Below are positions 4,590-50,334 of a stretch of DNA of 52,215 nucleotides, piece after piece. The notes beneath the pieces are model-generated. The model worked only from the letters and a program-made list of their open reading frames with translations, was not told the origin of the DNA and ran no database searches. The position numbers and the translations under genes were made by a program. The DNA lies in IMG/VR virus record IMGVR_UViG_3300045988_073749; one strand, 5' to 3'. Within the stretch, counting starts at the first letter, position 1. Each line of letters begins with the position of its first letter. Source of the DNA: a virus.

Positions 4590-5696
4590 TCACTCGGCCG
4601 GGGCAATCGCCTTGATGCGGCGAGCCGCCCGCATGGCGTTGTCGGTAAGCTGACGCTGCCACGCTCCCTGCGACGGCGCCCACCGGAAGCCCTCGCCCTT
4701 GAGCTCCGACCGCAGATCAGCATCCGGCCGGTCATCGAAGATGATCTGGAGACGGTTGACGCCCTGGTTCACGACGACCTTCCCGCCGTCAAACTCCCAG
4801 CCCTCGTCCGGGTTCTCCTTCTTCTTCTCCAGCTCGGCGATCCGCTGGCGGATTCGCCGGATGTTCGCATTGTTGTTCTGGAGCTGATAGGCCGGGTAGC
4901 CGATGCGGCCGCAGAAGTCGGGTGCCCGGAGCTTGGCGATCTCCTCCTCGGTGTAGCCGAGCTCGGCGAGCTTCGCGTCGCCCGCTTCCTTGTTCTTCAT
5001 GCGGATAGCCGCGTTGGCCGCCTTCATCTCCTCCTGGAGCTCCTCCAGCTTCCGCAGCTTGAGCTTGAGCTTATCCAGGGCCAGGGGGTCATCGGACGAG
5101 ATGCCGCCCGTTCCGACGGACTTGATGCGGCCGATGATGCCGTTGATCTCCTGCCACTCCGCCATGTTCTTATCAGACGCCGCGTTCTGGCGCTCCTTCT
5201 TGCGGACCGGGAAGTTGCTTCCGCCGGAGATCAGCACCGATGGACACATCGTACCGATGCGGTACCCGTCGTTCAGGTTGGCAGCCAGGCGGCGGGAATA
5301 GGAAGCCAGCAGTCCGTCGATCTTCTCATGGTACATGGGGTCCGTGCGCTGCTTCTGACGCTGGGCCACCATGGAGGCCTTGTCCACCTGGAGGCGGTAG
5401 TCCCAGGTCGCGGACCCAGGGACGTACTCGCTGAAGCTCATCATCTCCTTGGCCCGGCGGGCCATGTTCTCGTTGATGGGGTGGTACTCGGGGGACGGGC
5501 CGGGGACCAGGCCGTAGGCGTCCAGGTCACTCCCGGGGAGCTCCTGCTCGAACTCGACGTACCCCCAGAAGCGCTCGGTGAATCCCTCGAACTGCGAGCC
5601 GTTCTGGCCGTAGCTCTCGATGACGTTCGGTGCGGTGGTGGTGGGGTACTCCATGACGCCCTCCGGCGTCTTACGGGTGATGTAGTAGCGGTACAT
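4590..5696 (-). CDS. DUF3560-domain protein with an N-terminal polyvalent-protein-like region
   Basis: C-terminal RLQIIFDDRPDADLRSELKGEGFRWAPSQGAWQRQLTDNA matches my memory of the DUF3560 signature; AAAGGAG RBS. Confidence 0.55.
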   Translation of the reverse strand: MYRYYITRKTPEGVMEYPTTTAPNVIESYGQNGSQFEGFTERFWGYVEFEQELPGSDLDAYGLVPGPSPEYHPINENMARRAKEMMSFSEYVPGSATWDYRLQVDKASMVAQRQKQRTDPMYHEKIDGLLASYSRRLAANLNDGYRIGTMCPSVLISGGSNFPVRKKERQNAASDKNMAEWQEINGIIGRIKSVGTGGISSDDPLALDKLKLKLRKLEELQEEMKAANAAIRMKNKEAGDAKLAELGYTEEEIAKLRAPDFCGRIGYPAYQLQNNNANIRRIRQRIAELEKKKENPDEGWEFDGGKVVVNQGVNRLQIIFDDRPDADLRSELKGEGFRWAPSQGAWQRQLTDNAMRAARRIKAIAPAE

Positions 5697-5739: not shown

Positions 5740-6117
5740 TTACGCTTTGGGGAGCCCCTTGGGCTCCTTGGTCTTGCCTACGAAGCACTTGCCGCAGTAG
5801 GTCCACTCTCCATCCACCTTCGCAAAGGTGGTGTAGGTAGCCCTCCATCGGTCTGCCTCCGGGTCGTACTGGTGGGAATAGGGCTCACCAGCCTGGACCA
5901 GATCGCCGCGCAGCGTGGTCGGCGGGAGGCAGTTGACGAACTCCTCGACGATCTCCTCGTCCACCAGGTCCCCAGGCTTCGCAGCCTTCTCAAAGTCTCC
6001 GACCGCGCTCCAGTCGGCCATGCTCACGCGCCGCGCTTGGTTCTCTTGCCGGGCGCAGTCGCAAACCTCTCCCGGGTCCAGGCGGCTCCCGCAGCGGTCG
6101 CATTCGTGGTAGTACAT
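5740..6117 (-). CDS. Hypothetical protein with N-terminal zinc-ribbon (CDRCG...CDC)
   Basis: 125-aa ORF, RBS AGAAAGGGGAAA 5 nt before the ATG. Confidence 0.55.
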   Translation of the reverse strand: MYYHECDRCGSRLDPGEVCDCARQENQARRVSMADWSAVGDFEKAAKPGDLVDEEIVEEFVNCLPPTTLRGDLVQAGEPYSHQYDPEADRWRATYTTFAKVDGEWTYCGKCFVGKTKEPKGLPKA

Positions 6118-6392
6118 TCTCGTTTCCCCTTTCTGGTTCCAGCCGTCCAGCTCTTGAGCTTCCAGCCGGTGTAGATGAAGATCGCGGCATAGGCCGGGAT
6201 GCAGATTTCTCCGCCGACGGTACCGGCGCGAAGCTGGACGATGTCGATGGTCAGCAGCACCAGCCTTGCCGTTGCCATAGCGGCCAGGGCCAGGACAGAC
6301 ATTCTCGCGTACACCTTGAGCTCCCAGGCCTTCCGCTTGGCCTTCGCCCTCTCCTCGGGCTTGATCTTGATGGTCAGTTCTTTCGTCTCCAT
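6024..6392 (-). CDS. Small membrane protein (two hydrophobic segments); the 3' tail overlaps the next gene by 94 nt
   Basis: METKELTIKIK...VLALAAMATARLVLLTI...ICIPAYAAIFIYTGW; RBS TAAGGAGGG. Confidence 0.5.
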   Translation of the reverse strand: METKELTIKIKPEERAKAKRKAWELKVYARMSVLALAAMATARLVLLTIDIVQLRAGTVGGEICIPAYAAIFIYTGWKLKSWTAGTRKGKRECTTTNATAAGAAWTRERFATAPGKRTKRGA

Positions 6393-10744: not shown

Positions 10745-11209
10745 ATGAAAAAGATTCTGCGTTCTATCCTTGGGAAGGACCTGAACGAAATGAACGATAG
10801 TGAGCTGTCTGGCAAAATAAAAGAAATGCAAGATACATACCAGCAAAGAAAGCCGTTGTCGTTCGATGAGTTGATGAAGGTTCCAATGGAACAGTGGGGA
10901 GATTACGATGTCGGGACAGTCCGATTTGTTCCGGCTGCTGGCGTAGAGCCGTGCGAGCTATGCTCCAAAGTTTCCGGCAAGTGCTTGTCTCTGTCGGATG
11001 CGAAATTTTACATTGACCACGTTAGGAAGAACCACCGGTCCCCTTTATGCCTAACCACAATCCCGGCACACAGGACCAAATATGGCTCTGGATGTACCCT
11101 CCCGGATGTACCGGAAGAAGGTTCGCCAGAGCTGCCCGGTTATCAGGTCTTCCACCAATGGGCGGAGGACGTCTTCAATCGGGACCGCCCTCCAGAGAGG
11201 GAGGAATAG
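10745..11209 (+). CDS. Hypothetical protein (lysogeny-module cargo; the region looks AT-richer than the rest by eye)
   Basis: ATG 10745 (alternatives: TTG 10736, GTG 10694) after GAAGGGAG. Confidence 0.45.
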   Translation: MKKILRSILGKDLNEMNDSELSGKIKEMQDTYQQRKPLSFDELMKVPMEQWGDYDVGTVRFVPAAGVEPCELCSKVSGKCLSLSDAKFYIDHVRKNHRSPLCLTTIPAHRTKYGSGCTLPDVPEEGSPELPGYQVFHQWAEDVFNRDRPPEREE

Positions 11210-11213
11210 CCAA

Positions 11214-12266
11214 ATGCCCACTTACAAAGACAAGGAACGGGGCACCTGGTACGCATCGTTTTACTACACGGACTGGCAGGGGCGCCGCCGCCTCAAAAAG
11301 AAGCGGGGCTTCCAGCGCAAGAAGGACGCCCAGGCGTTTGAGGAAGAGTTCTTGCGGACCCGCGCCCGGAGCTGTGACATGACCTTTCGCTCTTTCGCAG
11401 AAATCTACCTGGGGGACATGGAGCCGCGTCTCAAGCGGACCACCATGCAGAACAAGTGGTATCTCATCGAGCACCGGGTCCTCCCGTTCTTCGGGGACCT
11501 CCCGCTCAACGAGATTACCCCGGCCCACGTTCGCAAGTGGCAATCGCAGCTTCTCGCGGACAAGGTGGCCCCGACCTATGCAAAGACCATCAACAACCAG
11601 CTTTCGGCCATATTCAACTACGCCTGCAAATACTACGGCCTGGGTATCAATCCGGCCCGCCTCGCCGGTAGCGTGGGCAAGAAAGACGCCCAGGAGATGT
11701 CATTCTGGACGGTGGAGCAGTTCAACCAATTCATCCCCCACGTCAAGAAGCTGCCCGCCCGGACCGGCCTATCGGTTCTGTTCTGGACCGGCCTGCGGAT
11801 AGGGGAGCTGCTGGCGCTCTGCCCGGAGGACATCGACCTGGAGGCCCGGACCCTTACCGTCCGCCGGAACTTCCAGAGCGTAGAGGGCGAAGAGGTCATA
11901 ACGGACCCAAAGACCCAGCGAGGCCGCCGGGTGATACCGCTGCCGGAAAAGCTGTGCGATGAGATACGGGCTTATGAGAACGCCCTATACGACCCCCAGC
12001 CGGATGACCGGCTATTTCCGTTCACGAAGCACTATTTCCGGCGGGCGATGCTCAAGGGGTGCGTGGAGGCCGGTATGGACCCAATCAGGCTCCATGATCT
12101 GCGTCATTCCCACGCGGCCCTACTCATCCACCTGGGGACGCCTATTCTGCTGGTGAAAGAGCGCCTGGGCCATGAGGACATACAAACGACGCTGCGGACC
12201 TATGGGCACCTGTACCCCACCACCAGCGATGAAGCAGTCAAAAAGATGGATGATTTGATGCGTTAA
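11214..12266 (+). CDS. int: Tyrosine integrase
   Basis: MPTYKDKERGTWYASFYY... N-terminus; catalytic-region HDLRHSHAALLI and LGHEDIQTTLRTYGHLY; RBS GGGAGGAA. Confidence 0.9.
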   Translation: MPTYKDKERGTWYASFYYTDWQGRRRLKKKRGFQRKKDAQAFEEEFLRTRARSCDMTFRSFAEIYLGDMEPRLKRTTMQNKWYLIEHRVLPFFGDLPLNEITPAHVRKWQSQLLADKVAPTYAKTINNQLSAIFNYACKYYGLGINPARLAGSVGKKDAQEMSFWTVEQFNQFIPHVKKLPARTGLSVLFWTGLRIGELLALCPEDIDLEARTLTVRRNFQSVEGEEVITDPKTQRGRRVIPLPEKLCDEIRAYENALYDPQPDDRLFPFTKHYFRRAMLKGCVEAGMDPIRLHDLRHSHAALLIHLGTPILLVKERLGHEDIQTTLRTYGHLYPTTSDEAVKKMDDLMR

Positions 12267-14584: not shown

Positions 14585-15367
14585 TTACTCCGTCACGACC
14601 TTGTAGTAGTCGTCCAGGAGCGCCGGGGGCGCCCAACCATCCTGCTTGGTGAAGACACGCAGGACCTCATACTCCGTGCCGTCGTGGGTGAAATGGTCGC
14701 CTACCTGGAACGTGTGATTGGCCTCCAGTTCATCCCAATCCGGGACATTCCCCGGCTCCGGCCCCGGTTCGGGTTCCGGCTCCGGCTCTACTTCTTCGTA
14801 GAGCTTGTACTCAGAGGGGACCAGGTGGGGGTAGTGCGGCTCATAGAGCGTGACGCCCGCCTCCTTGATGGGGGTATAGAGCTTCTGGTCCACGGGGTCC
14901 CGGCGCACCGCTCCGTAGGGGACGTGCTCGCCCCACATGAAGTCCAGATACCCTCCGGGTTCCTCCGGCTCGCTACGAAGCGGACGGAACAACGTCCGCC
15001 CGCCCACGGTTCCAGGTGCCCAATCCGCCTGCGCCTGGTGCTGCGTGGTGCAGATGTAAAGCTCGCTGTCCGGCCCCACGATAGGCTCATCCTTGAAGAT
15101 GGTCCCCATGGTGGCACTCCAGATGCGGGTGCCGTCCGCCGCCGCGATGATTTTCAGCTCGGCGTCGGTGTAGTCTCCGCTCTCAACCTGTCCGGCGCGG
15201 ATGAGGTTCGCCCGCGCCCGGTTCACATGAAGCTCCGGGAGGCCAGGGCCGCCCATCTCCACCAGAGCGTCATGGGTGGCAAGGATGGCCGCCCACAGCT
15301 CATAGGTGTCCACGCTCTTTTCCTGCTTCTGGTAGGCGCGGGCTTCGTCAAGACTTCTCATAGTCAT
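14585..15367 (-). CDS. Putative carbohydrate-binding (CBM5/12-like) fibre-associated protein
   Basis: Two W-x-PG aromatic modules; EPEPEPEPGPEP linker; C-terminal FQVGDHFTHDGTEYEVL...DGWAPP. Confidence 0.4.
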   Translation of the reverse strand: MTMRSLDEARAYQKQEKSVDTYELWAAILATHDALVEMGGPGLPELHVNRARANLIRAGQVESGDYTDAELKIIAAADGTRIWSATMGTIFKDEPIVGPDSELYICTTQHQAQADWAPGTVGGRTLFRPLRSEPEEPGGYLDFMWGEHVPYGAVRRDPVDQKLYTPIKEAGVTLYEPHYPHLVPSEYKLYEEVEPEPEPEPGPEPGNVPDWDELEANHTFQVGDHFTHDGTEYEVLRVFTKQDGWAPPALLDDYYKVVTE

Positions 15368-15373
15368 TCCCCC

Positions 15374-17071
15374 TTAGATGTAGCTTGCGGACAGAGAGTA
15401 GCAGGCGATGCTTTCATACCCTCCGACCTTGGTGATCTGGACGCGGACACCCACCGCAAAGCTATCCGCAGTCTTCGCGGAATTGCTGAAAATGTGCTTG
15501 AGGCCGAGCTGTGCAGTCTCCCAGGTCGGCTCTTCGTCGTTGTAGTTGTTGCAGACCTGGATTGTCACGCCGTCCTCGTGGGCGTTGTACCGCATGGAGA
15601 CAAGGATTTTCTGAGCGGCGGCGCTGGTGTCATCCACCTTCCAGTCAAAGTCGATGATGGAGACGGACCGGGTAAAGGTGATGGTACGGGTGACGCTGTT
15701 CCCGGCGCTGTCCGAGACCTTGATAGTCATGGTGTGCGGCCCAGTGAGGGCGGCGAACTGCGCCGCCGTGAGCGCAAAGGTGTATTGGTGGTTCCGCTCT
15801 GCCGGGGTGATGGTATTAAGGGTCACACCATCCAGGCTCTCTACGATGGTGAGCGTGTCTCCGGCGTCCCCGTCGTTGACCGTGTACTGGAACGAGGGCG
15901 GCGTAGTCACCACGCCGAGCTGCTGATCGCTGCCGCTCACTGTCGGGTCTACATTGTGGGTGACGGTCCGGGTGGGGCTGGTGGTGTATGCGCTATACGC
16001 GGCCTTGCTGTCCTTGGCGCGGACCCGGTAGGCTACCGTGTTCATCGCCGTGGTGATCGTGTCGCTGAACTGCGTCGCAGCCCCGTCGTAGATTTTGGAC
16101 CATGCGCCGCTATTGTACTGCCGCTCAAGCTCGTAGCTTACGGCGTCGCTGTCCGGGTCCACCGACGCCGCCCAGGAGACGGTGAGACCTTTACCGCTCC
16201 GCACGTCCTCCGGCACGGTGATGGACGGGGGCGTGGTGGGGGCGTTATTCCAGATAATCGTGTAGTACCCCTCTCCATCCGGTGTATCAGATACCAAGAT
16301 GTCAGAGGACAGATTCAAAGCCGGGCGCACACCCCAGTTGCCGTAGTACGCGCTGTTGTAGTGGAGGCTCCCGTCCGAGTACACGCAGCGCACGTAGTAC
16401 GCGTTCGACGAATACGGGGAGCGGAGCCACCAGTACCAGAACTGCGACGCGCTCAAGCTGCTATTGGTGTACTCGCTGTTGCTCACGGCCTGAGCTGTGG
16501 GCTTGCACTGGCGGCTTGCGTTGTCGCTGAACATAGCCAGCTTCGTGCCCTCCGCGACGCCGTTCTCCGAACCGAGGCCAACCTCTGCCATGGACAGCAG
16601 AAAAATCTTGTCTTGGACGGTCTCGGACCCGCCGCCGTCCGTGCCGGGCTTTGCGACGGTCAGGGTGGTGGTGAGCAGCGCGGCCAGCATCTCCGCGCCG
16701 AAGCCGGTCAGGAAGCCGGATTGTGCGTCGTACGCGTTGTGGCCGTTCCAGACGTAGGAATTGGACGGGGGCCGGTCATAGCTGTGCTGGGCCTGATACC
16801 AGCCGGTCCCGCTCTTATTGAGCCACTGGCGGATGTTAGCCAGGGAATAGCGGTTGTTGCCGTATCTCTCCCGGTCCAAGATGCCGTCGCTCTCCATAGC
16901 GTCGAAGCAGCAGATTTTGATGATGCTCTCGGCCACAAGGGTTGTGCTGTTGGCCGGATAGCCTGCGTGGTTTTTATCACCGATTTCCCAGCCGATGGGG
17001 ATGCCGTAATACTTAGTCTTTGCGTCCCGCACTTTCGCCTTTACGGGTAGGGCGCTGATTTTCTGCGGCAT
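15374..17071 (-). CDS. DGR target protein 1: DUF6273-like/C-type-lectin-fold domain carrying VR1, followed by Fn3/Ig-like C-terminal domains (receptor-binding candidate)
   Basis: ...FLLSMAEVG...FWYWWLRSPYSSNAYYVRCVYSDGSLHYNSAYYGNWGVRPALNL...; contains VR1. Confidence 0.8.
   Translation of the reverse strand: MPQKISALPVKAKVRDAKTKYYGIPIGWEIGDKNHAGYPANSTTLVAESIIKICCFDAMESDGILDRERYGNNRYSLANIRQWLNKSGTGWYQAQHSYDRPPSNSYVWNGHNAYDAQSGFLTGFGAEMLAALLTTTLTVAKPGTDGGGSETVQDKIFLLSMAEVGLGSENGVAEGTKLAMFSDNASRQCKPTAQAVSNSEYTNSSLSASQFWYWWLRSPYSSNAYYVRCVYSDGSLHYNSAYYGNWGVRPALNLSSDILVSDTPDGEGYYTIIWNNAPTTPPSITVPEDVRSGKGLTVSWAASVDPDSDAVSYELERQYNSGAWSKIYDGAATQFSDTITTAMNTVAYRVRAKDSKAAYSAYTTSPTRTVTHNVDPTVSGSDQQLGVVTTPPSFQYTVNDGDAGDTLTIVESLDGVTLNTITPAERNHQYTFALTAAQFAALTGPHTMTIKVSDSAGNSVTRTITFTRSVSIIDFDWKVDDTSAAAQKILVSMRYNAHEDGVTIQVCNNYNDEEPTWETAQLGLKHIFSNSAKTADSFAVGVRVQITKVGGYESIACYSLSASYI
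16318..16425 (-). repeat. DGR variable region VR1 (108 nt)
   Basis: Gap-free alignment to the TR; 10 mismatches, all at TR adenines. Confidence 0.9.
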
Positions 17072-18119
17072 GGTTTGACTTTACACTCCTTTCAAAGATG
17101 GAGGCGCAAACCGCGTCGTACTTGGTGATGAGTTCCCGGCATTGGCCGTGGGAAGCATGAGACCTCCAGCTCTGGTAGCTCTCTTCAATCTGCTTCCGGG
17201 TCATAGCGCCGTTTTCATACATCACCGCGTATTTCCGCAGCTTGCGCCTCATACGGTCTTTGCTGGAACGCCTAACTTTCCGTATTACCTTTCCGGTGTC
17301 GGTCAGGTATGTGTGGAAGCCCAAAAAGTCCAGGCCGTTCCGCAAGGGGAAGATCTGTGTCTTCTGGTTTAGCTCAAGACCTCTCGGGGTCAAGAACTGC
17401 TCGACTTTCCTCCACGCTTCACGAAGCGCCTCCTTGCTCTCGCAGATGATATAAAAATCATCCATGTAGCGGCCATAGTACCGCATTCGGAGGACTTCTT
17501 TGACGTAGTGGTCGAGTTCATTCAGATACAATAGGGCGTACACCTGGGACGATTGATTGCCTATGGGGATGCCGACATTACCAGGGGTGCTATCTATGAT
17601 AGCGTCGGACAAGGCCCGGCTCCGTGGGTCTGTGAGCAGCTTATTGACATCTCGCTTGAGAATGTCGTGCCGGATGCTGGCGAAGTAGTGCCGGACATCC
17701 GCTTTCAGGACCCAGCCGTCGGCGCTCCCGTGCTTCCGGTAATACTCCCGCATGAAGTCACGGAGGCGGTCGAGGCCGAAGTGGGTTCCCTTTCCGACTT
17801 GGCTCCCGTAGTTATCCAGGATAAAGGGGCGGCTCAGGACGGGGTAAAGGATGTTGTCGCAAAAGGCGTGTTGCACGATTTTGTCCTTGACGCTGTTCGT
17901 CTGGATGAGGCGTCGCTTTGGCTCAAAGACGTAGAACTCATGGTAATTTCCAGGCTTGTAGAGACCGTCCCGCAGCTCAGCTTGCAGGACGGTGATCGCC
18001 TCCAGAGTGTTCAGCTCCACTTTGGCAACGGAGTCTTTCCATCGCTTGCCTTTCCTGGTTGCCCGATACGCCGCATAGAGATTAGCGAAGTCATAAACGA
18101 CTTCAAAATTCTGTTCCAT
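17013..18119 (-). CDS. DGR reverse transcriptase
   Basis: GIPIGNQSSQ, RYYGRYMDDF (YMDD), LGF; ATG 18119; the 3' end overlaps the target-1 start by 59 nt. Confidence 0.9.
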   Translation of the reverse strand: MEQNFEVVYDFANLYAAYRATRKGKRWKDSVAKVELNTLEAITVLQAELRDGLYKPGNYHEFYVFEPKRRLIQTNSVKDKIVQHAFCDNILYPVLSRPFILDNYGSQVGKGTHFGLDRLRDFMREYYRKHGSADGWVLKADVRHYFASIRHDILKRDVNKLLTDPRSRALSDAIIDSTPGNVGIPIGNQSSQVYALLYLNELDHYVKEVLRMRYYGRYMDDFYIICESKEALREAWRKVEQFLTPRGLELNQKTQIFPLRNGLDFLGFHTYLTDTGKVIRKVRRSSKDRMRRKLRKYAVMYENGAMTRKQIEESYQSWRSHASHGQCRELITKYDAVCASIFERSVKSNHAAENQRPTRKGESAGRKD

Positions 18120-18288
18120 AATAGGCACCTTGCGCCGCTGGTAGCGCCGAAGCTCCAATGGGCGAGCCTCAGCGCGTCGGCGCTATGTGTTTATCCCTGC
18201 CCTGTCAGGCCGGGACCGGATACGTCCTCCTTTGATGGTGGGCTTCTGCTTTCTCCCTTTCGGGTTACTCGGTCACGGTATTCCACCG

Positions 18289-18396
18289 AAGCCGGGCGCA
18301 CACCCCTGTTGCCGTTGTACGCGTTGTTGTTGTTGAGGCTCCCGTCCGAGTTCACGTAGCGCACGTTGTTCGCGTTCGACGAATTCGGGGAGCGGA
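18289..18396 (-). repeat. DGR template repeat (TR)
   Basis: AAC-rich pseudo-ORF (SPNSSNANNVRYVNSDGSLNNNNAYNGNRGVRPA) homologous to VR1 and VR2. Confidence 0.9.
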
Positions 18397-18448
18397 CAAG
18401 GCACACCCAGGGGGATGCACGTACAGGACGCACCCGCGGCCTCTCAAA

Positions 18449-18877
18449 TCATCGCCGTGCGCCGCCGGTCTGAACTTGCTGCCGGAAGCGCTCGGCGTCC
18501 TTTTTACGCCACGACGCGGCAAGGTTCTTTACGTCGGTGGTGAGGCCCGTCCAATATTCACACCGCCTGATGTCGATATACCCCTGCTCCAGAGCTATAT
18601 CCAGGAAGTTCAGGAAGACCTTGCAGTTGGTCAAGACCTCTTTCTGGAGGTCAAGGCGCGTGTTCATCTCAGCGACGGTCCGAGGGTATATCTCGTTGGC
18701 CGCTATGATGTCATGCAGGATTTGGATTGAGAGGTTCTGCATCCTCTGGCAGAGGGTGAAGCGCACCTTTTTAGGGAACAGCTTAGTGTTGTTCGTGAGC
18801 TGCAAGGTATGGTTTACCAGGTCTTTTGCCTTGCAGATGATGGTGAGTTCACCGTGCCGGTTCTGCAAACAGGACAC
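18449..18877 (-). CDS. avd: Accessory variability determinant (Avd-like four-helix-bundle protein)
   Basis: ...KAKDLVNHTLQLTNNTKLFPKKVRFTLCQRMQN...; sits upstream of TR-RT; the start may be TTG 18868. Confidence 0.7.
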   Translation of the reverse strand: MSCLQNRHGELTIICKAKDLVNHTLQLTNNTKLFPKKVRFTLCQRMQNLSIQILHDIIAANEIYPRTVAEMNTRLDLQKEVLTNCKVFLNFLDIALEQGYIDIRRCEYWTGLTTDVKNLAASWRKKDAERFRQQVQTGGARR

Positions 18878-19092
18878 CTCCTTTCACGCAGGGCCTCCAG
18901 CTCATCAGCCGGTACGCCGTCCACTTCGAGGACGCCGGGCCGGACGCGGATAGTGACCCTCTGGCCTTTATATCCCAAACCGCAGAGCACAAGCCCCTCC
19001 AGGCCCTCGCAGGGGCAAGGGGTCTCCAGCTCTGCGATAAGGTTCGGAATAAGACAGCTCGCCTCTTCGGGGCTGCAAAGTAGCCCCGTCAT
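18814..19092 (-). CDS. Hypothetical protein (92 aa)
   Basis: ATGA coupling to the tail-fibre stop at 19089-19092. Confidence 0.35.
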   Translation of the reverse strand: MTGLLCSPEEASCLIPNLIAELETPCPCEGLEGLVLCGLGYKGQRVTIRVRPGVLEVDGVPADELEALRERRCPVCRTGTVNSPSSARQKTW

Positions 19093-19817
19093 GCTGTGAT
19101 GGAGCGTCCGGTCTGGCTCCAAACTCCGTCGCGCATGGCGATACCGGCGAGGGTGGCAAAGTCGGCGGTCTTGTTGATGCCTCCGGGCATATCGCCGGAC
19201 ACCAGATCGTTGAGTAGGTCGATTGCGGCCGCATGGTCGCTCAGGGTGTTGGCGAGGCCGGAAACGTCGCTGATTTCATGGCTGTGGCCCAGGAGCGCAT
19301 ACTTTTCCAGGTCCACCACGCGGGCCAGGGCGTCCGGGTCGATGATGGCCGAAACGCTCGCCGCTGCGCCCACAATGTTGATGATGTTGAAAGTCACCAT
19401 CTTGTTTACCGGGCTGCCCTGGGGCCTCATCCACTCCGGCTTGCTCTGGAGGGGCAGATAGGAATAGGCAACGTCGCCCTCGCCCTCCGGGTCCTTGATG
19501 TAGAGCATGACGCCCTTGACGTAGAAGCCGGTCTCGACGCCCACGCTGGTAGCCTGGACCACCACCGTAGCCTCGCCGGTGCCGGTATTCTCACACTTGG
19601 CAATCATGGCGTCTCCGGCATACTCAATCGGGGCGGTCAGGTCTTCAACCACCGTCCCCTCCGGGAGATCGCCGCTGTCCAGCTCCGCCTTTGTGAACTG
19701 GATGCCGCCGCTCCCAGCCATGACTTTACCCAGGGCGGTGTAGCCGCTGTTGAGCAGCACCGCGCCCTCTTCGCTCTCCGCGATGTCGGGAGAGGCCAGA
19801 ATTTCTCTGTTTGGCAT
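19089..19817 (-). CDS. Tail fibre protein
   Basis: Follows the baseplate genes; ...LLGHSHEISDVSGLANTL... fibre-type motif. Confidence 0.6.
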   Translation of the reverse strand: MPNREILASPDIAESEEGAVLLNSGYTALGKVMAGSGGIQFTKAELDSGDLPEGTVVEDLTAPIEYAGDAMIAKCENTGTGEATVVVQATSVGVETGFYVKGVMLYIKDPEGEGDVAYSYLPLQSKPEWMRPQGSPVNKMVTFNIINIVGAAASVSAIIDPDALARVVDLEKYALLGHSHEISDVSGLANTLSDHAAAIDLLNDLVSGDMPGGINKTADFATLAGIAMRDGVWSQTGRSITA

Positions 19818-48026: not shown

Positions 48027-48908
48027 TTATCCCTCCAGAAGGCTTTCCAGGTTGTCCAGTCTCTTGCACTCCATCTCGCTGTTGTCCCCGAAGATGACGT
48101 GGAGCTGGTTGAGCATGATCTCAACGTCGGCCCGCTCCATGGAGATGTTGTCGCGGATGGCCTGCTCATCCCCGATACCGTAGTCCTCGCAGAACACCAG
48201 CTTCAAGATGGCCTGGGACAGCTCGCTCATCTCCTCAATCGCCTTGAGGGCCTGGGCTCTCTTGCCCCACTTGGCAACGGCCTTCTCATAGAGTGCCATC
48301 TCGCGCTGCTCCGGGGTCATCTCCTCCGGCTCCTCCGCCTGGTCTTCCTGGTCATCGACAGATACCAAGATGTCAGATTTCAGGGTCAAAGCCGGGCGCA
48401 CACCCCCGTCGCCGACGTACGCGAGGTCGTAGTCGAGGCTCCCGTCCGAGTACACGAAGCGCACGAAAGAGGTGCCGGAGCTGGCGGGCGTACCATCGGG
48501 GGTAATGAGCCAGCGCCAGTGTTCCGGCGCAGGGTGAAGGTCTCTGGTCTCCCGGTATTCATCCGCCGTCAGCATGGTCACCTTATCGAGGCAAGCCCCG
48601 TAGTCGTTGAGGCCATCATCGGCGGTCAGATCGCGGTAGGTGGGGACGATGAACTCCAGGATGCCGGGGCGTTCCTTCTCCAGGGCGTCCAGGAAGTCAC
48701 CGTTCAGCCGCTCCCGCAGGCTGGCGTTATTCCAGTTGTTGTTGCCGTTCTCGTCGAAGGGTGCCTGGAAGATGTCTTCCGCAGCCTCGCAGAAATAGTT
48801 CTGCACGGCTCCAGAGTGGGCGGGCTCAAGCTCCTTGAGCACCTTCCAGTTGATACCGGCCAGGGCGAAGGTGTCGCCACGGCGCAGCGCGTTCAGTTTG
48901 ACTTCCAT
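48027..48908 (-). CDS. DGR target protein 2: DUF6273-like/CLec-fold domain with VR2, an acidic linker, and a MazG-like all-alpha NTP-pyrophosphohydrolase-type C-terminal domain
   Basis: ATG 48908 after AGGAGG; ...WRWLITPDG...FVRFVYSDGSLDYDLAYVGDGGVRPALTL...; C-terminal KAIEEMSELSQA... and ...MERADVEIMLNQL. Confidence 0.7.
   Translation of the reverse strand: MEVKLNALRRGDTFALAGINWKVLKELEPAHSGAVQNYFCEAAEDIFQAPFDENGNNNWNNASLRERLNGDFLDALEKERPGILEFIVPTYRDLTADDGLNDYGACLDKVTMLTADEYRETRDLHPAPEHWRWLITPDGTPASSGTSFVRFVYSDGSLDYDLAYVGDGGVRPALTLKSDILVSVDDQEDQAEEPEEMTPEQREMALYEKAVAKWGKRAQALKAIEEMSELSQAILKLVFCEDYGIGDEQAIRDNISMERADVEIMLNQLHVIFGDNSEMECKRLDNLESLLEG
48389..48467 (-). repeat. DGR variable region VR2 (79 nt of TR homology)
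   Basis: 13 mismatches to the TR, all at TR adenines; homology ends after TR position 79. Confidence 0.85.
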
Positions 48909-49146: not shown

Positions 49147-49377
49147 CTACACATTCTGGAACCGATTGGGGCAGTTCACGTTATTGCAGAAACGCTCCGT
49201 TCCGATCTCCCGCAGCGGATGCCCGCAGTATTGGCAGAATCGGCCAGGCTGCCGGGTCGGTTCCTCGTCGGCGTGGGTTCCCCCAAACCTCATACGGTTT
49301 ACCATGCACATGATAGAGCCAGGCTGCGCGGCTGCGCTGCACTCGCTCTTGGCCTTGCAGGTGTAGCAGTTATACAT
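49147..49377 (-). CDS. Zinc-ribbon small protein (76 aa)
   Basis: CYTC...C; CQYCGHPL...CNNVNC. Confidence 0.45.
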   Translation of the reverse strand: MYNCYTCKAKSECSAAAQPGSIMCMVNRMRFGGTHADEEPTRQPGRFCQYCGHPLREIGTERFCNNVNCPNRFQNV

Positions 49378-49741
49378 TCACATCCTCCTCCAGGTACTTT
49401 TCCCAGGTGCGCCGCATGGGTTCCTCTCCCATCATGTAGGCCCACACCCGATCATTCTTCTCGGTAAGCTCAAGGGCATATAGGGCAGCTTCCCTCGGCG
49501 TCCTGAACACCTTTTTTCCGATGTCCTTGTTCTTGTAGTAGTGCAACTGCCGGTATCCGTCTGGGCCGGGCCCATGAAGGACCATCTCATCCCATTTCGG
49601 TAGCAGTTTTTGGACCTCCGCTCTGCACACGCAATACTCCTTCTCGCAAAGGTGGCTGCCCTTCGGCGTGTAGAAGTGCTCTACTACGACCCAGAAGACC
49701 TCTCCGACCTTTGCCTGGTCTCTCGCGCTCACTATCATCAT
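49370..49741 (-). CDS. Hypothetical protein (start uncertain: ATG 49741/49738 or GTG 49732)
   Basis: AGGAGG abuts the first ATG. Confidence 0.45.
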   Translation of the reverse strand: MMIVSARDQAKVGEVFWVVVEHFYTPKGSHLCEKEYCVCRAEVQKLLPKWDEMVLHGPGPDGYRQLHYYKNKDIGKKVFRTPREAALYALELTEKNDRVWAYMMGEEPMRRTWEKYLEEDVNV

Positions 49742-50334
49742 CCTCCTTCGTAGGGGTCCGGCAAGCTCCAGTCCCACGTTTCCCCGGTCTTCTCGTACTC
49801 CTTGCGGAAGTGGTTCTCCACTCCGTCTCCCTCGAAGAACAGGTAATCGGCCGGCAGCGTGCGGCCCACATCTTCCTCGCCAGCCTTTTCGGCCCCCCAG
49901 CGCAGAAGGACATCCTCAGCCAGTATCAGGAACTCTCCTGTCACCGGGGATGCCGGGTCGTAGGCGAACTGGTAAGGGGCGCTTACAACTTCCGCGATGG
50001 TCTCGCCATATCCACCGGCGTCCACCCGATTGAGGACGCACCAGACGACGGCCGCTTGCTGTGCTTTGCTCTTAACACCCCGGGCCTCCGCCCAGACTGT
50101 CTTCGCCAGCATCTCGATCTCCTGATGTGTCCAGGGGATCTCTGGCTCATCTGATGTCACATCGTCCGGGTCAGGAAGCAAAACAGAGCCTTCCCCAATC
50201 TCGATCTGAACCAGGTCCCCAGGGGCGGATTCCTCACCCGCCTCGGTGCCGAGCCGAAGCCCTCCGACGGTCACGCTTGCAAACAGGACCGCGCAGAGGG
50301 TCAGACACACGGCCACCACCAGTTTCTCTTTCAT
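49738..50334 (-). CDS. Secreted SleB/CwlJ-type cell-wall hydrolase
   Basis: Signal-peptide-like MKEKLVVAVCLTLCAVLFASV; ...TVWAEARG...VVWCVLNRV... Confidence 0.7.
   Translation of the reverse strand: MKEKLVVAVCLTLCAVLFASVTVGGLRLGTEAGEESAPGDLVQIEIGEGSVLLPDPDDVTSDEPEIPWTHQEIEMLAKTVWAEARGVKSKAQQAAVVWCVLNRVDAGGYGETIAEVVSAPYQFAYDPASPVTGEFLILAEDVLLRWGAEKAGEEDVGRTLPADYLFFEGDGVENHFRKEYEKTGETWDWSLPDPYEGG

Follow-up and report, generated by a model that had tools for sequence, protein, structure and literature searches.

Does the segment between positions 15,374 and 18,877 of the window (the whole stretch of viral DNA analysed, 52,215 nt) hold a complete diversity-generating retroelement (DGR), and what would such an element diversify? 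The sequence-only reading had proposed a DGR with accessory protein (Avd), template repeat (TR), reverse transcriptase (RT) and one target, and had taken it as a signature of mutagenic retrohoming. Judged by its sequence, the DGR at this locus is genuine and complete, and the proposal holds as far as it went; it was incomplete, since it overlooked a second target whose variable repeat (VR2) lies 30 kb away; the element is one of a published class of two-target "tentaclin" DGRs. Our reading, to which we assign a probability of about 0.88, is that of a two-target DGR in a temperate, contractile-tailed gut phage, in or near Pseudoflavonifractor/Flavonifractor. We establish here the anatomy of the element, the restriction of mismatches to adenines at both VRs, natural VR diversification with a constant TR, and covariation of the RNA that flanks the TR.

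Anatomy of the element

All DGR genes lie on the minus strand in the order avd–TR–RT–target 1, with target 2 at a remote position, as follows:

18449..18877, minus: avd; likely true start TTG at 18868 (139 aa); PHROG 3206, "Avd protein of DGR", 5e-41
18289..18396, minus: TR, 108 nt; 27 adenines, 10 AAC codons and 1 AAT codon; 0–1 base differences across 15 related loci
18289..18306, minus: A-free, GC-rich TR 3′ end GGGGTGTGCGCCCGGCTT, the same in TR, VR1 and VR2; IMH-like homing end
17013..18119, minus: DGR RT, 368 aa; ATG at 18119, stop at 17013; IGNQSSQ and RYYGRYMDDF
15374..17071, minus: target 1, 565 aa, tentaclin-type; N-terminal DUF6273 lectin-like domain, then three Ig-like beta-sandwich domains
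16318..16425, minus: VR1, coding for aa 216–252 of target 1; 10/10 mismatches at TR adenines
16289..16300, minus: conserved, rare-codon ATCTTGGTATCT motif 3′ of VR1
48027..48908, minus: target 2, 293 aa; N-terminal DUF6273 with VR2, acidic linker, C-terminal MazG-like four-helix domain
48389..48465, minus: VR2, 77 nt; matches TR positions 32–108; codes for aa 207–233 of a 352-aa ORF
48360..48371, minus: conserved, rare-codon ATCTTGGTATCT motif 3′ of VR2
48030..48323, minus: putative MazG-like NTP-pyrophosphohydrolase-type domain (AF2 four-helix bundle, fold matches, PHROG 2245)

Both RT motifs named in the sequence-only reading are intact in the ORF and fit the [ILV]GxxxSQ and YxDD patterns of DGR-clade RTs; the active site is not disrupted. 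The protein matches Pfam RVT_1 (5.6e-20) and PHROG 1423 (2e-138); of the solved structures, the Bordetella phage bRT matches it best (8ub7, 2.7e-40), with IGxxxSQ and YMDD aligned, and group II intron RTs follow at 2e-12. The Avd-like gene upstream of the RT is borne out by its PHROG match, and its start, placed at 18877 before, needs revision: TTG at 18868 is in frame 8 nt after the ribosome-binding site AAAGGAGG, GTG at 18877 abuts AAAGGAGG, and the TTG appears the more likely start. Avd scores under the curated cut-offs of Pfam bAvd (32.6 bits against 40; 1.2e-7) and NCBIfam DivGenRetAVD (36 against 80; 6e-9), and a search of solved structures gave no sequence match for it.

The TR is non-coding, sits between avd and RT and is indeed AAC-rich, as had been noticed. 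A computed alignment with VR1, which lies in the downstream 565-aa gene as claimed and is internal to its protein, is gapless over 108 nt and reproduces the ten mismatches counted before (7 A>T, 2 A>G and 1 A>C), with no substitution at a non-adenine TR position. Since 27 of the 108 TR bases are adenines, ten random positions would all be A with a probability of 2.2e-7. VR2 differs from the TR at 11 positions, again all of them adenines (P = 1.1e-8). Homology between TR and VR1 ends abruptly at both borders; the final 18 nt in coding sense, whose identity between the two had been pointed out earlier, contain no A and recur in VR2. The alignment contains no IMH/IMH* mismatches at the TR/VR ends, where homology simply stops. 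Every TR adenine (27/27) occupies codon position 1 or 2, none of the possible substitutions at these adenines creates a stop codon, and the theoretical diversity is about 7e15 peptides.

VR2 lies outside the segment covered by the sequence-only reading and is not mentioned in it. The ORF of target 2 stays open back to 49085; an AGGAGG stands 7 nt 5′ of the ATG at 48908, and the resulting length is the same in more than 260 homologs. The start of target 1, for its part, overlaps the 3′ end of the RT by 59 nt (17013–17071). Up to 100 nt after VR1 or VR2, no inverted repeats that could form a hairpin or cruciform were found, and the folding z-scores of the DNA downstream of the two repeats are −0.96 and −0.40. 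In place of a cruciform, the linear motif ATCTTGGTATCT follows both VRs.

Flanking RNA and diversification in related genomes

The sequence around the TR has the following elements:

18425..18430, minus: upstream duplex strand CGTCCT, 19 nt past the avd stop and 29 nt ahead of the TR
18120..18288, minus: structured spacer RNA between TR and RT, conserved in 120/155 RT loci
18283–18287 with 18237–18241, minus: spacer helix P1 (GGTGG with CCACC)
18254–18265, minus: GAAA-capped hairpin
18226–18236, minus: conserved sequence ATCAAAGGAGG
18223–18228, minus: duplex strand AGGACG, pairing with CGTCCT at 18425..18430
about 18194–18217, minus: hairpin
within 18120..18288, minus: conserved sequence GGATAAACACAT

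RNAalifold predicts 18 pairs in the spacer, 12 of them with compensatory changes. Paired cells amount to 94.9%; in shuffles the figure is 80.1%, with 0 of 500 as high, and it falls to 35–49% when the partners are slid. For the duplex that brackets the TR, the mean Watson–Crick run across 28 representative loci is 7.04 in cognate and 4.74 in non-cognate upstream/spacer pairs (p = 2.5e-15). The RNA flanking the TR has covarying helices, including a long-range TR-bracketing duplex, like those that the Bordetella DGR requires.

We compared 12 related genomes whose RTs are 81–100% identical and, among related loci, 15 TRs, 14 VR1s and 11 VR2s. When each TR is aligned to its own VR1, 144 of 146 differences fall at adenines. 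Sites that vary in VR1 include all 27 A sites and only 4 of the 81 non-A sites. The TR is nearly invariant (4 variants in 15 loci), whereas the 14 VR1 loci carry 14 variants; VR2, likewise, differs in 11/11 related loci, at adenine sites. A few rare TR variants outside adenines are shared with the VRs: the polymorphism G35C recurs in both VRs of the contigs that have it in the TR (L079/L163, L083/L165), the G allele being retained in L078/L164, and T95C is common to the TR and VR1 of L085. A constant TR, adenine-variable VR1 and VR2, and co-segregating rare non-adenine TR variants argue that the lineage homes into both targets. RTs that are 98–100% identical nevertheless accompany VR1 sequences that are all different, which suggests a very recent diversification when compared with other divergence. 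The mutagenic-retrohoming proposal gains support from these data, together with the Bordetella-like RT and the covarying RNA.

By what route this might happen we infer from the Bordetella paradigm. Transcription would yield an RNA that covers the 3′ part of avd together with TR and spacer, and this RNA would fold into the conserved helices, i.e., the stem-loop just 3′ of the TR and the long-range duplex around it. The RT–Avd complex would then use the TR as template for cDNA and misincorporate opposite its adenines, and the cDNA would replace the homologous repeat in the two genes, with the A-free end GGGGTGTGCGCCCGGCTT as anchor. Both cis-priming and the route of cDNA integration are part of this presumed enzymology.

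Could the same pattern come from ordinary duplicated DUF6273 paralogs that diverged by normal mutation or gene conversion beside an unrelated RT (of a group II intron, a retron or an abortive-infection system)? Targets 1 and 2 are indeed paralogous DUF6273 proteins, and the RT weakly matches group II intron and defence RT models. However, those alternative models score far under their cut-offs, with the Bordetella DGR RT best by 28 orders of magnitude; a non-coding TR with sharp homology borders lies between avd and RT; and mismatches are adenine-exclusive at both VRs, as they almost always are in the relatives. We consider the chance of this scenario next to negligible, and the mismatch spectrum refutes it. 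A less radical alternative is that of a fossil, i.e., the TR/VR pattern would record past activity of the lineage and the present copy would no longer diversify. Published relatives keep both targets without a DGR, and the evidence for retrohoming is at the level of the population. Against it, this copy has an intact RT, avd, TR and spacer RNA and two VRs with intact A-free ends, and near-identical RTs each come with a different VR1. We regard a fossil as improbable and favor a DGR that still serves two targets.

The two target proteins

In target 1, DUF6273 spans aa 41–255 (Pfam, 6e-37) with VR1 at its C-terminal end. Pfam Big_9 and Big_13 match the Ig-like part, which AF2 models as three beta-sandwiches (aa ~269–565, pLDDT 82–96), and PHROG 10993 matches the protein at 8e-252. 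An N-terminal DUF6273 with the VR, followed by Ig-like domains, is characteristic of tentaclins (Baykov et al. 2023). Tentaclins also have a C-terminal Ig-like anchor domain with a seven-residue consensus, which target 1 may share in view of its 47% identity to the nd4 and nd12 tentaclins over residues 1–558. Target 2 matches Pfam DUF6273 (3.4e-8), PHROG 9958 (1.7e-66) and PHROG 2245 (5.8e-16). VR2 is likewise at the C-terminal end of its DUF6273 domain, which is probably the same kind of lectin-like domain as that of target 1. AF2 confidence is low for the DUF6273 domains of both targets (pLDDT 32–86), and the lectin-like (C-lec) fold that we propose for them draws on the DUF6273 match, on Foldseek matches to DUF6273 models and to 9qa6, and on published homolog models. 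We infer the roles of both proteins; that of target 1 is most likely to serve as an adhesin on the virion.

AF2 predicts a four-helix bundle for the C-terminal domain of target 2 (helices 199–214, 216–243, 248–273 and 277–292; pLDDT 84–96). Foldseek matches it to DCTPP1, RS21-C6 and iMazG in the PDB (prob 0.75–0.98), and in BFVD to phage models named "nucleoside triphosphate pyrophosphohydrolase" (TM 0.56–0.78, rmsd 2.6–3.8 Å), with TM values of 0.51–0.78 overall. E225, E229, E258, R259 and D261 are invariant and E226 nearly so, which gives EEMSEL ... ERAD; the invariant E-x3-E and E-R-A-D are found in 28 fusion proteins and in a stand-alone form of the domain, a 112-aa gene at the same genomic place in relatives. 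The MazG family has the acidic metal-binding signature E-x2-E ... E-x2-D, which the residues of target 2 fit as a pattern rather than by residue-level alignment to a characterised enzyme. PHROG 2245 is the sole sequence model that matches the helical domain: no Pfam family, MazG families included, matches it in target 2, 6 of 14 homologs match DUF2443 only, and a PDB profile search returned only an unrelated weak match. Taken together, the model and fold matches point to a putative MazG-like NTP pyrophosphohydrolase.

It is also conceivable that both targets are virion receptor-binding proteins, with the small target Mtd-like and its helical domain an oligomerisation or attachment module instead of an enzyme. 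MazG-type bundles oligomerise, and such a bundle would give avidity. The DUF6273 fold matches include phage proteins named receptor-binding protein and tail-collar fiber. Published hypotheses favor receptor binding, and a role like that of Bordetella phage Mtd was proposed for the small target by Baykov et al. 2023 (PMC10743442). The gene for target 2, on the other hand, is located among replication and early genes, where a DnaD-like protein and DUF5131 flank it; it lies upstream of the terminase, by about 9 kb, and is well separated from the tail genes. The stand-alone gene at the same place and the invariance of the acidic motif in fused and separate forms also speak against a purely structural module. 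We give the receptor-binding explanation for both proteins somewhat less than even odds, and prefer for target 2 a diversified lectin-like domain fused to a MazG-like domain.

Comparison with known systems

With the prototype BPP-1 (mtd-avd-TR-brt), the element shares a homologous RT (E = 2.7e-40), Avd, adenine-specific mutagenesis, an A-free GC-rich VR 3′ end and structured TR-flanking RNA, in which a stem-loop directly follows the TR and an upstream strand pairs with a downstream one. The order is target-avd-TR-RT in BPP-1 but avd-TR-RT-target here, where there are two targets and the VR lies inside a multidomain protein. BPP-1 has a differing IMH/IMH* pair, whereas here TR and VR are equal up to the end of homology, and BPP-1 needs a hairpin/cruciform after the VR, a feature that is not universal in DGRs and is absent here.

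The DGRs of the Faecalibacterium phages Toutatisvirus, Lelie and CP11 (PMC11792537; bioRxiv 10.1101/2024.10.15.618418) are closer in layout. Downstream of their Avd and RT comes a "Hoc-like" DUF6273-Ig target, and a second DUF6273 target lies far upstream of the TR in the core genome (17,480 nt in Toutatisvirus). Their targets are only 31–36% identical to the present ones; no NTP-pyrophosphohydrolase fusion is reported for them, and tblastn matches end before the MazG-like domain.

The closest likeness is to the two-target tentaclin DGRs of the gut phages nd4 and nd12 (Baykov et al. 2023, PMC10743442; GenBank OR777945, OR777946). These, too, are small temperate myovirus-type phages, with a tentaclin of 565–579 aa whose VR ends the N-terminal DUF6273 domain, a smaller second DUF6273 target with a shorter VR kilobases off among early genes, and an AAC-rich TR in which A>C is the rarest change. 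Target 1 is 47% identical to its counterparts in both phages over 99% of its length (residues 1–558), and the TR and spacer are about 80% identical to nd12 at the DNA level. The present phage belongs to another lineage; the phage collection contains nothing close to it, and 30 kb separate its VR2 from the TR. Homology to their second targets is limited to residues 2–184: neither the nd4 protein (234 aa) nor that of nd12 (294 aa, with an N-terminal DUF3310-like helix) has the C-terminal MazG-like domain of about 100 aa.

Gut phages of Oscillospiraceae (nd4, nd12, Toutatis and Lelie) have already been described with the arrangement Avd-TR-RT-tentaclin and a small DUF6273 target at a distance; the present element, from the features of its genes and repeats, is therefore a further member of this described class of gut-phage DGRs. 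Its helical domain resembles enzymes of the DCTPP1/RS21-C6/iMazG fold in its predicted four-helix bundle, carries invariant E-x3-E and E-R-A-D residues, and differs from the phage MazG-like NTP pyrophosphohydrolases in being fused to a DGR-diversified lectin-like domain. This fusion to the small target and the conserved rare-codon motif ATCTTGGTATCT 3′ of both VRs appear to be unreported additions to the class.

The cassette and its second target

The window carries a real, complete diversity-generating retroelement (DGR), and every gene across the region lies on the minus strand. Its parts are the following:

18449-18877, minus strand, avd
18289-18396, minus strand, template repeat (TR)
18120-18288, minus strand, structured spacer RNA
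17013-18119, minus strand, reverse transcriptase (RT)
15374-17071, minus strand, target 1 (565 aa)
16318-16425, minus strand, first variable repeat (VR1), in target 1
48027-48908, minus strand, target 2 (293 aa)
48389-48465, minus strand, second variable repeat (VR2), in target 2

In a computed alignment, TR and VR1 match over 108 nt with 0 gaps, abrupt borders on both sides and 10 mismatches (7 A>T, 2 A>G, 1 A>C). All ten fall at TR adenines, as the sequence-only reading had counted; given 27 adenines in the 108-nt TR, ten random positions would all be adenine with P = 2.2e-7. Exact pairwise alignment, the check named in that reading, thus leaves no non-adenine TR position substituted in VR1. 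The terminal 18 nt, GGGGTGTGCGCCCGGCTT, are indeed the same in both repeats and free of adenine, and the description of the TR as AAC/Asn-rich holds in its codons (10 AAC and 1 AAT). In the target frame, every TR adenine occupies codon position 1 or 2, adenine substitution can create no stop codon, and about 7e15 peptides are reachable.

The IGNQSSQ and YMDD motifs reported earlier for the RT are intact. The protein matches RVT_1 and PHROG 1423 (2e-138), and among solved structures the Bordetella phage DGR RT is closest to it (8ub7, 2.7e-40), with both motifs aligned; since group II intron RTs reach 2e-12 at best, another RT class is rejected. The ORF upstream of the TR is Avd by PHROG 3206 (5e-41), so the earlier identification stands; its scores against Pfam and NCBIfam models lie under the curated cut-offs, and no sequence match was found among solved structures. 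The start at 18877, on the other hand, is less likely than the TTG at 18868, preceded by a AAAGGAGG site, which is probably the true one. A scan of the cassette for promoters and terminators returned sites no more frequent than in shuffles, and no tRNA or tmRNA was found in the window.

Two gene overlaps were observed. The RT gene ends within target 1: its last 19 codons share 59 nt (17013-17071) with the first 19 of target 1, read in another frame, and both ends are confirmed by where homologs start. A conserved 102-aa ORF of unknown function (18814-19122, minus strand; PHROG 21058, 1e-43), located between a tail-fibre gene and avd, overlaps the annotated avd start.

When the window was searched for TR copies, scored on non-adenine TR positions only, a third one emerged at 48389-48496, separated from the TR by 30 kb. 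Here VR2 aligns to TR positions 32-108 with 11 mismatches, 11 of 11 at adenines (P = 1.1e-8), and ends in the same 18 nt as TR and VR1; TR positions 1-31 have no DNA homology at this copy. The gene that holds it lies ~9 kb upstream of the terminase gene and has AGGAGG 7 nt ahead of its ATG; its neighbours encode a DnaD-like replication protein, a cell-wall-hydrolase-like protein and DUF5131. Ordinary paralog divergence as the source of the repeats is rejected, the mismatches being adenine-only at both VR1 and VR2. The earlier proposal of a complete DGR with the signature of mutagenic retrohoming is therefore supported, and is extended by a second target that it had not listed.

At the 5′ border of VR2 (~48466-48469), opposite TR positions 29-31 (CAA), some relatives have CTA and others TTT (related loci L157, L158, L160 and L162). 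The 5′ homing limit in target 2 may thus shift by a few bases from one genome to another.

Diversification among related phages

An RT with 100% identity to the window's is encoded by Pseudoflavonifractor sp. Marseille-P3106 (LT827125, prophage at ~370-392 kb), a cultured isolate that offers a culturable host, and some dozen gut viral contigs encode one with 98-100% identity. Across 15 related loci the TR exists in only 4 variants, each one base apart, while no two of the 14 VR1 copies are alike, with variation at 27/27 adenine sites vs 4/81 others. When each TR was compared with its own VR1 in 12 genomes, 144 of 146 mismatches were at adenines (A>G 73, A>T 51, A>C 20). VR2 likewise differs, at adenine sites, in 11/11 related loci recovered.

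Rare non-adenine variants of the TR are copied faithfully, as expected if transfer into both targets runs in one direction, from TR to VR. G35C is found in TR, VR1 and VR2 of the same contigs (locus pairs L079/L163 and L083/L165), position 35 is G in all three repeats of L078/L164, and T95C is common to TR and VR1 of L085. Five loci (L002, L080, L081, L082 and L106) have T for A at TR position 12 (window 18385), and VR1 has T there in 3/3 of those that also hold VR1 (L002, L080 and L081), as templating predicts. At the population level, these patterns show recent DGR activity in the lineage, rather than in the window copy itself, and such very recent diversification at both targets makes for a tractable system.

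The window seems to be the complete, circularly permuted genome of a temperate myovirus, with an integrase (11082-12266, plus strand), a primase (4590-5696) and sheath, baseplate, portal and terminase genes. Mosaicism is evident among these phages (L078/L164, L079/L163, L083/L165, L156-L157): target 2 shares just 61-62% identity with the window's in contigs whose RTs are 99-100% identical, and 97% in other contigs. Megablast of the cassette and target 2 against the phage collection found no close relative; the sole match was to nd12 and MT837771, in a 178-nt stretch of TR and spacer that is 80% identical.

Cis elements around the repeats

The ~170 nt spacer between TR and RT is conserved in 120/155 loci, down to ~44% RT identity. 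In its consensus structure, built from 31 aligned representatives, 12 of the 18 pairs have compensatory changes. Paired cells amount to 94.9% in the true register, against 80.1% in column shuffles (0/500 reach it) and 35-49% when the partners are slid. The elements recognized in the spacer alignment and structure are these:

18283-18287 (GGTGG) with 18237-18241 (CCACC), minus strand, stem directly after the TR, around a GAAA-capped hairpin
ATCAAAGGAGG, minus strand, conserved element in the spacer alignment
Further hairpin, minus strand, in the spacer consensus structure
GGATAAACACAT, minus strand, conserved element in the spacer alignment

An Rfam scan of the whole window at gathering thresholds returned no family; the spacer RNA is thus without a curated model.

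The spacer also appears to pair across the TR, since CGTCCT (18425-18430), 29 nt upstream of the TR, is complementary to AGGACG (18223-18228) in the spacer. Motif-anchored search was too crude for the upstream strand, which was resolved by testing cognate against non-cognate complementarity: among 28 loci, the mean perfect run was 7.04 bp for cognate upstream/spacer pairs vs 4.74 for non-cognate ones (p = 2.5e-15), with full compensation in, for example, TGGGCTTT:AAAGCCCA and TGTGACCC:GGGTCACA. When duplexes were predicted over the whole length, 60 nt upstream of the TR versus the spacer, the scores did not exceed those of shuffled sequence. In the Bordetella DGR ribonucleoprotein, an Avd-binding stem-loop and the "cPRT Stop" duplex are counterparts, in position and logic, of the stem and the TR-bracketing duplex found here, and the authors of that work predicted such RNA elements in other phyla.

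A 12-nt motif, ATCTTGGTATCT, occurs exactly twice in the window (0.09 expected), each time 18-29 nt after the end of a VR:

16289-16300, minus strand, exact match to ATCTTGGTATCT, after VR1
48360-48371, minus strand, exact match to ATCTTGGTATCT, after VR2

Pyrimidine-rich relatives of the motif follow the VR in clades down to ~44% RT identity and are absent after the TR; no hairpin was found after VR1 or VR2. The motif may be a DNA element for target recognition or homing, acting in cis in place of the Bordetella hairpin. It also encodes I-L-V-S, with codons rare in this 60% GC genome (TTG 6.9% of Leu, GTA 10.3% of Val, TCT 9.5% of Ser), and could just as well be a conserved beta-strand whose codons were inherited with it.

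The target proteins and comparison with known elements

In target 1, DUF6273 (aa 41-255, 6e-37) precedes Ig-like domains, and PHROG 10993, "Hoc-like head decoration", matches the protein along its entire length. With target 1 of the gut phages nd4 and nd12 it shares 47% identity across 99% of its length. In its AF2 model, three beta-sandwich domains are confident (aa ~269-565, pLDDT 82-96) and the N-terminal domain is poorly modelled; confidence was low for the DUF6273 domains of both targets, probably because the alignments held close homologs only. Directly downstream of target 1 and ahead of the lysis genes, a 260-aa protein (14585-15367, minus strand; PHROG 35850, 8e-173) ends in a CBM_5_12 carbohydrate-binding module and could be a partner of this tentaclin-type target.

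Target 2, which has numerous homologs of the same length, combines DUF6273 with matches to PHROG 9958 and PHROG 2245, "NTP pyrophosphohydrolase". Its AF2 model has a confident C-terminal four-helix bundle (pLDDT 84-96), whose fold matches DCTPP1, RS21-C6 and iMazG in the PDB (prob 0.75-0.98) and many phage NTP-pyrophosphohydrolase models in BFVD (TM 0.56-0.78, rmsd 2.6-3.8 Å); the EEMSEL ... ERAD residues of this domain are invariant, the glutamates E225, E229 and E258 among them. With moderate confidence, the fold would place the domain (aa 196-293) in the MazG-like NTP-pyrophosphohydrolase type. The confidence is only moderate because sequence searches gave no support for MazG, whether of the window domain against PDB and Pfam, of a 14-homolog profile against PDB or of each homolog against Pfam. 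In Pfam, 6/14 homologs of the domain matched DUF2443. A weak uvsW match looks like chance.

Relatives that lack the fusion encode a stand-alone 112-aa homolog of the C-terminal domain at the same syntenic position (5977-6315 in the related locus L171, window 48030-48323), between a homolog of 49370-49777 and DUF5131. The fusion thus added a lectin-like module to an early gene already present there, which argues for an intracellular or enzymatic role of target 2, as its partner is of NTP-pyrophosphohydrolase type. For the N-terminal domain, the best PDB fold match is the IgA peptidase of Thomasclavelia ramosa (9qa6), whose own N-terminal domain is DUF6273 as well, a hint that such domains can serve host-protein recognition. 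We hypothesize, giving it roughly one chance in four, that target 2 is an early-expressed intracellular enzyme, with a hypervariable lectin-fold binding domain and an active MazG-type pyrophosphohydrolase, and not a virion receptor-binding protein. If so, the phage would retarget an enzyme by mutagenic retrohoming, e.g., towards variable host factors or nucleotide-based defences, and a DGR would be put to a use other than altering adsorption specificity.

As such, the window DGR is ordinary: Avd-TR-RT-tentaclin with a remote small DUF6273 target is already known from gut Oscillospiraceae phages in at least three papers. Of the two targets in the nd4 and nd12 elements, one is a tentaclin, in which an N-terminal C-lec/DUF6273 domain is joined to Ig domains, and the other is a small DUF6273 protein whose VR is shorter; the substitution biases reported for these elements are the same as in the window lineage (Baykov et al. 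2023, PMC10743442). Faecalibacterium phages Lelie, Toutatis and CP11 have paired large and small DUF6273 targets (PMC11792537). In Toutatisvirus, which encodes Avd and RT, a Hoc-like target follows the RT gene, and the second target is located 17,480 nt upstream of the TR (bioRxiv 10.1101/2024.10.15.618418). The role of the second target is called unclear in the published literature, and the fusion in target 2 gives a direct way into it; full-text literature searches found no report of a DGR target with MazG or pyrophosphohydrolase. Beyond the literature searched are this fusion, the covariation evidence for a TR-bracketing duplex in this clade and the conserved motif downstream of the VRs. 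The duplex and the motif are concrete cis sequences for a Bacillota DGR, mechanistic work to date having been almost entirely on the Bordetella element. In nd4 and nd12, target 2 also lies among early genes, but its homology to the window's target 2 stops before the MazG-like domain; the window element has the architecture of the nd4/nd12/Toutatis class in a different phage lineage.
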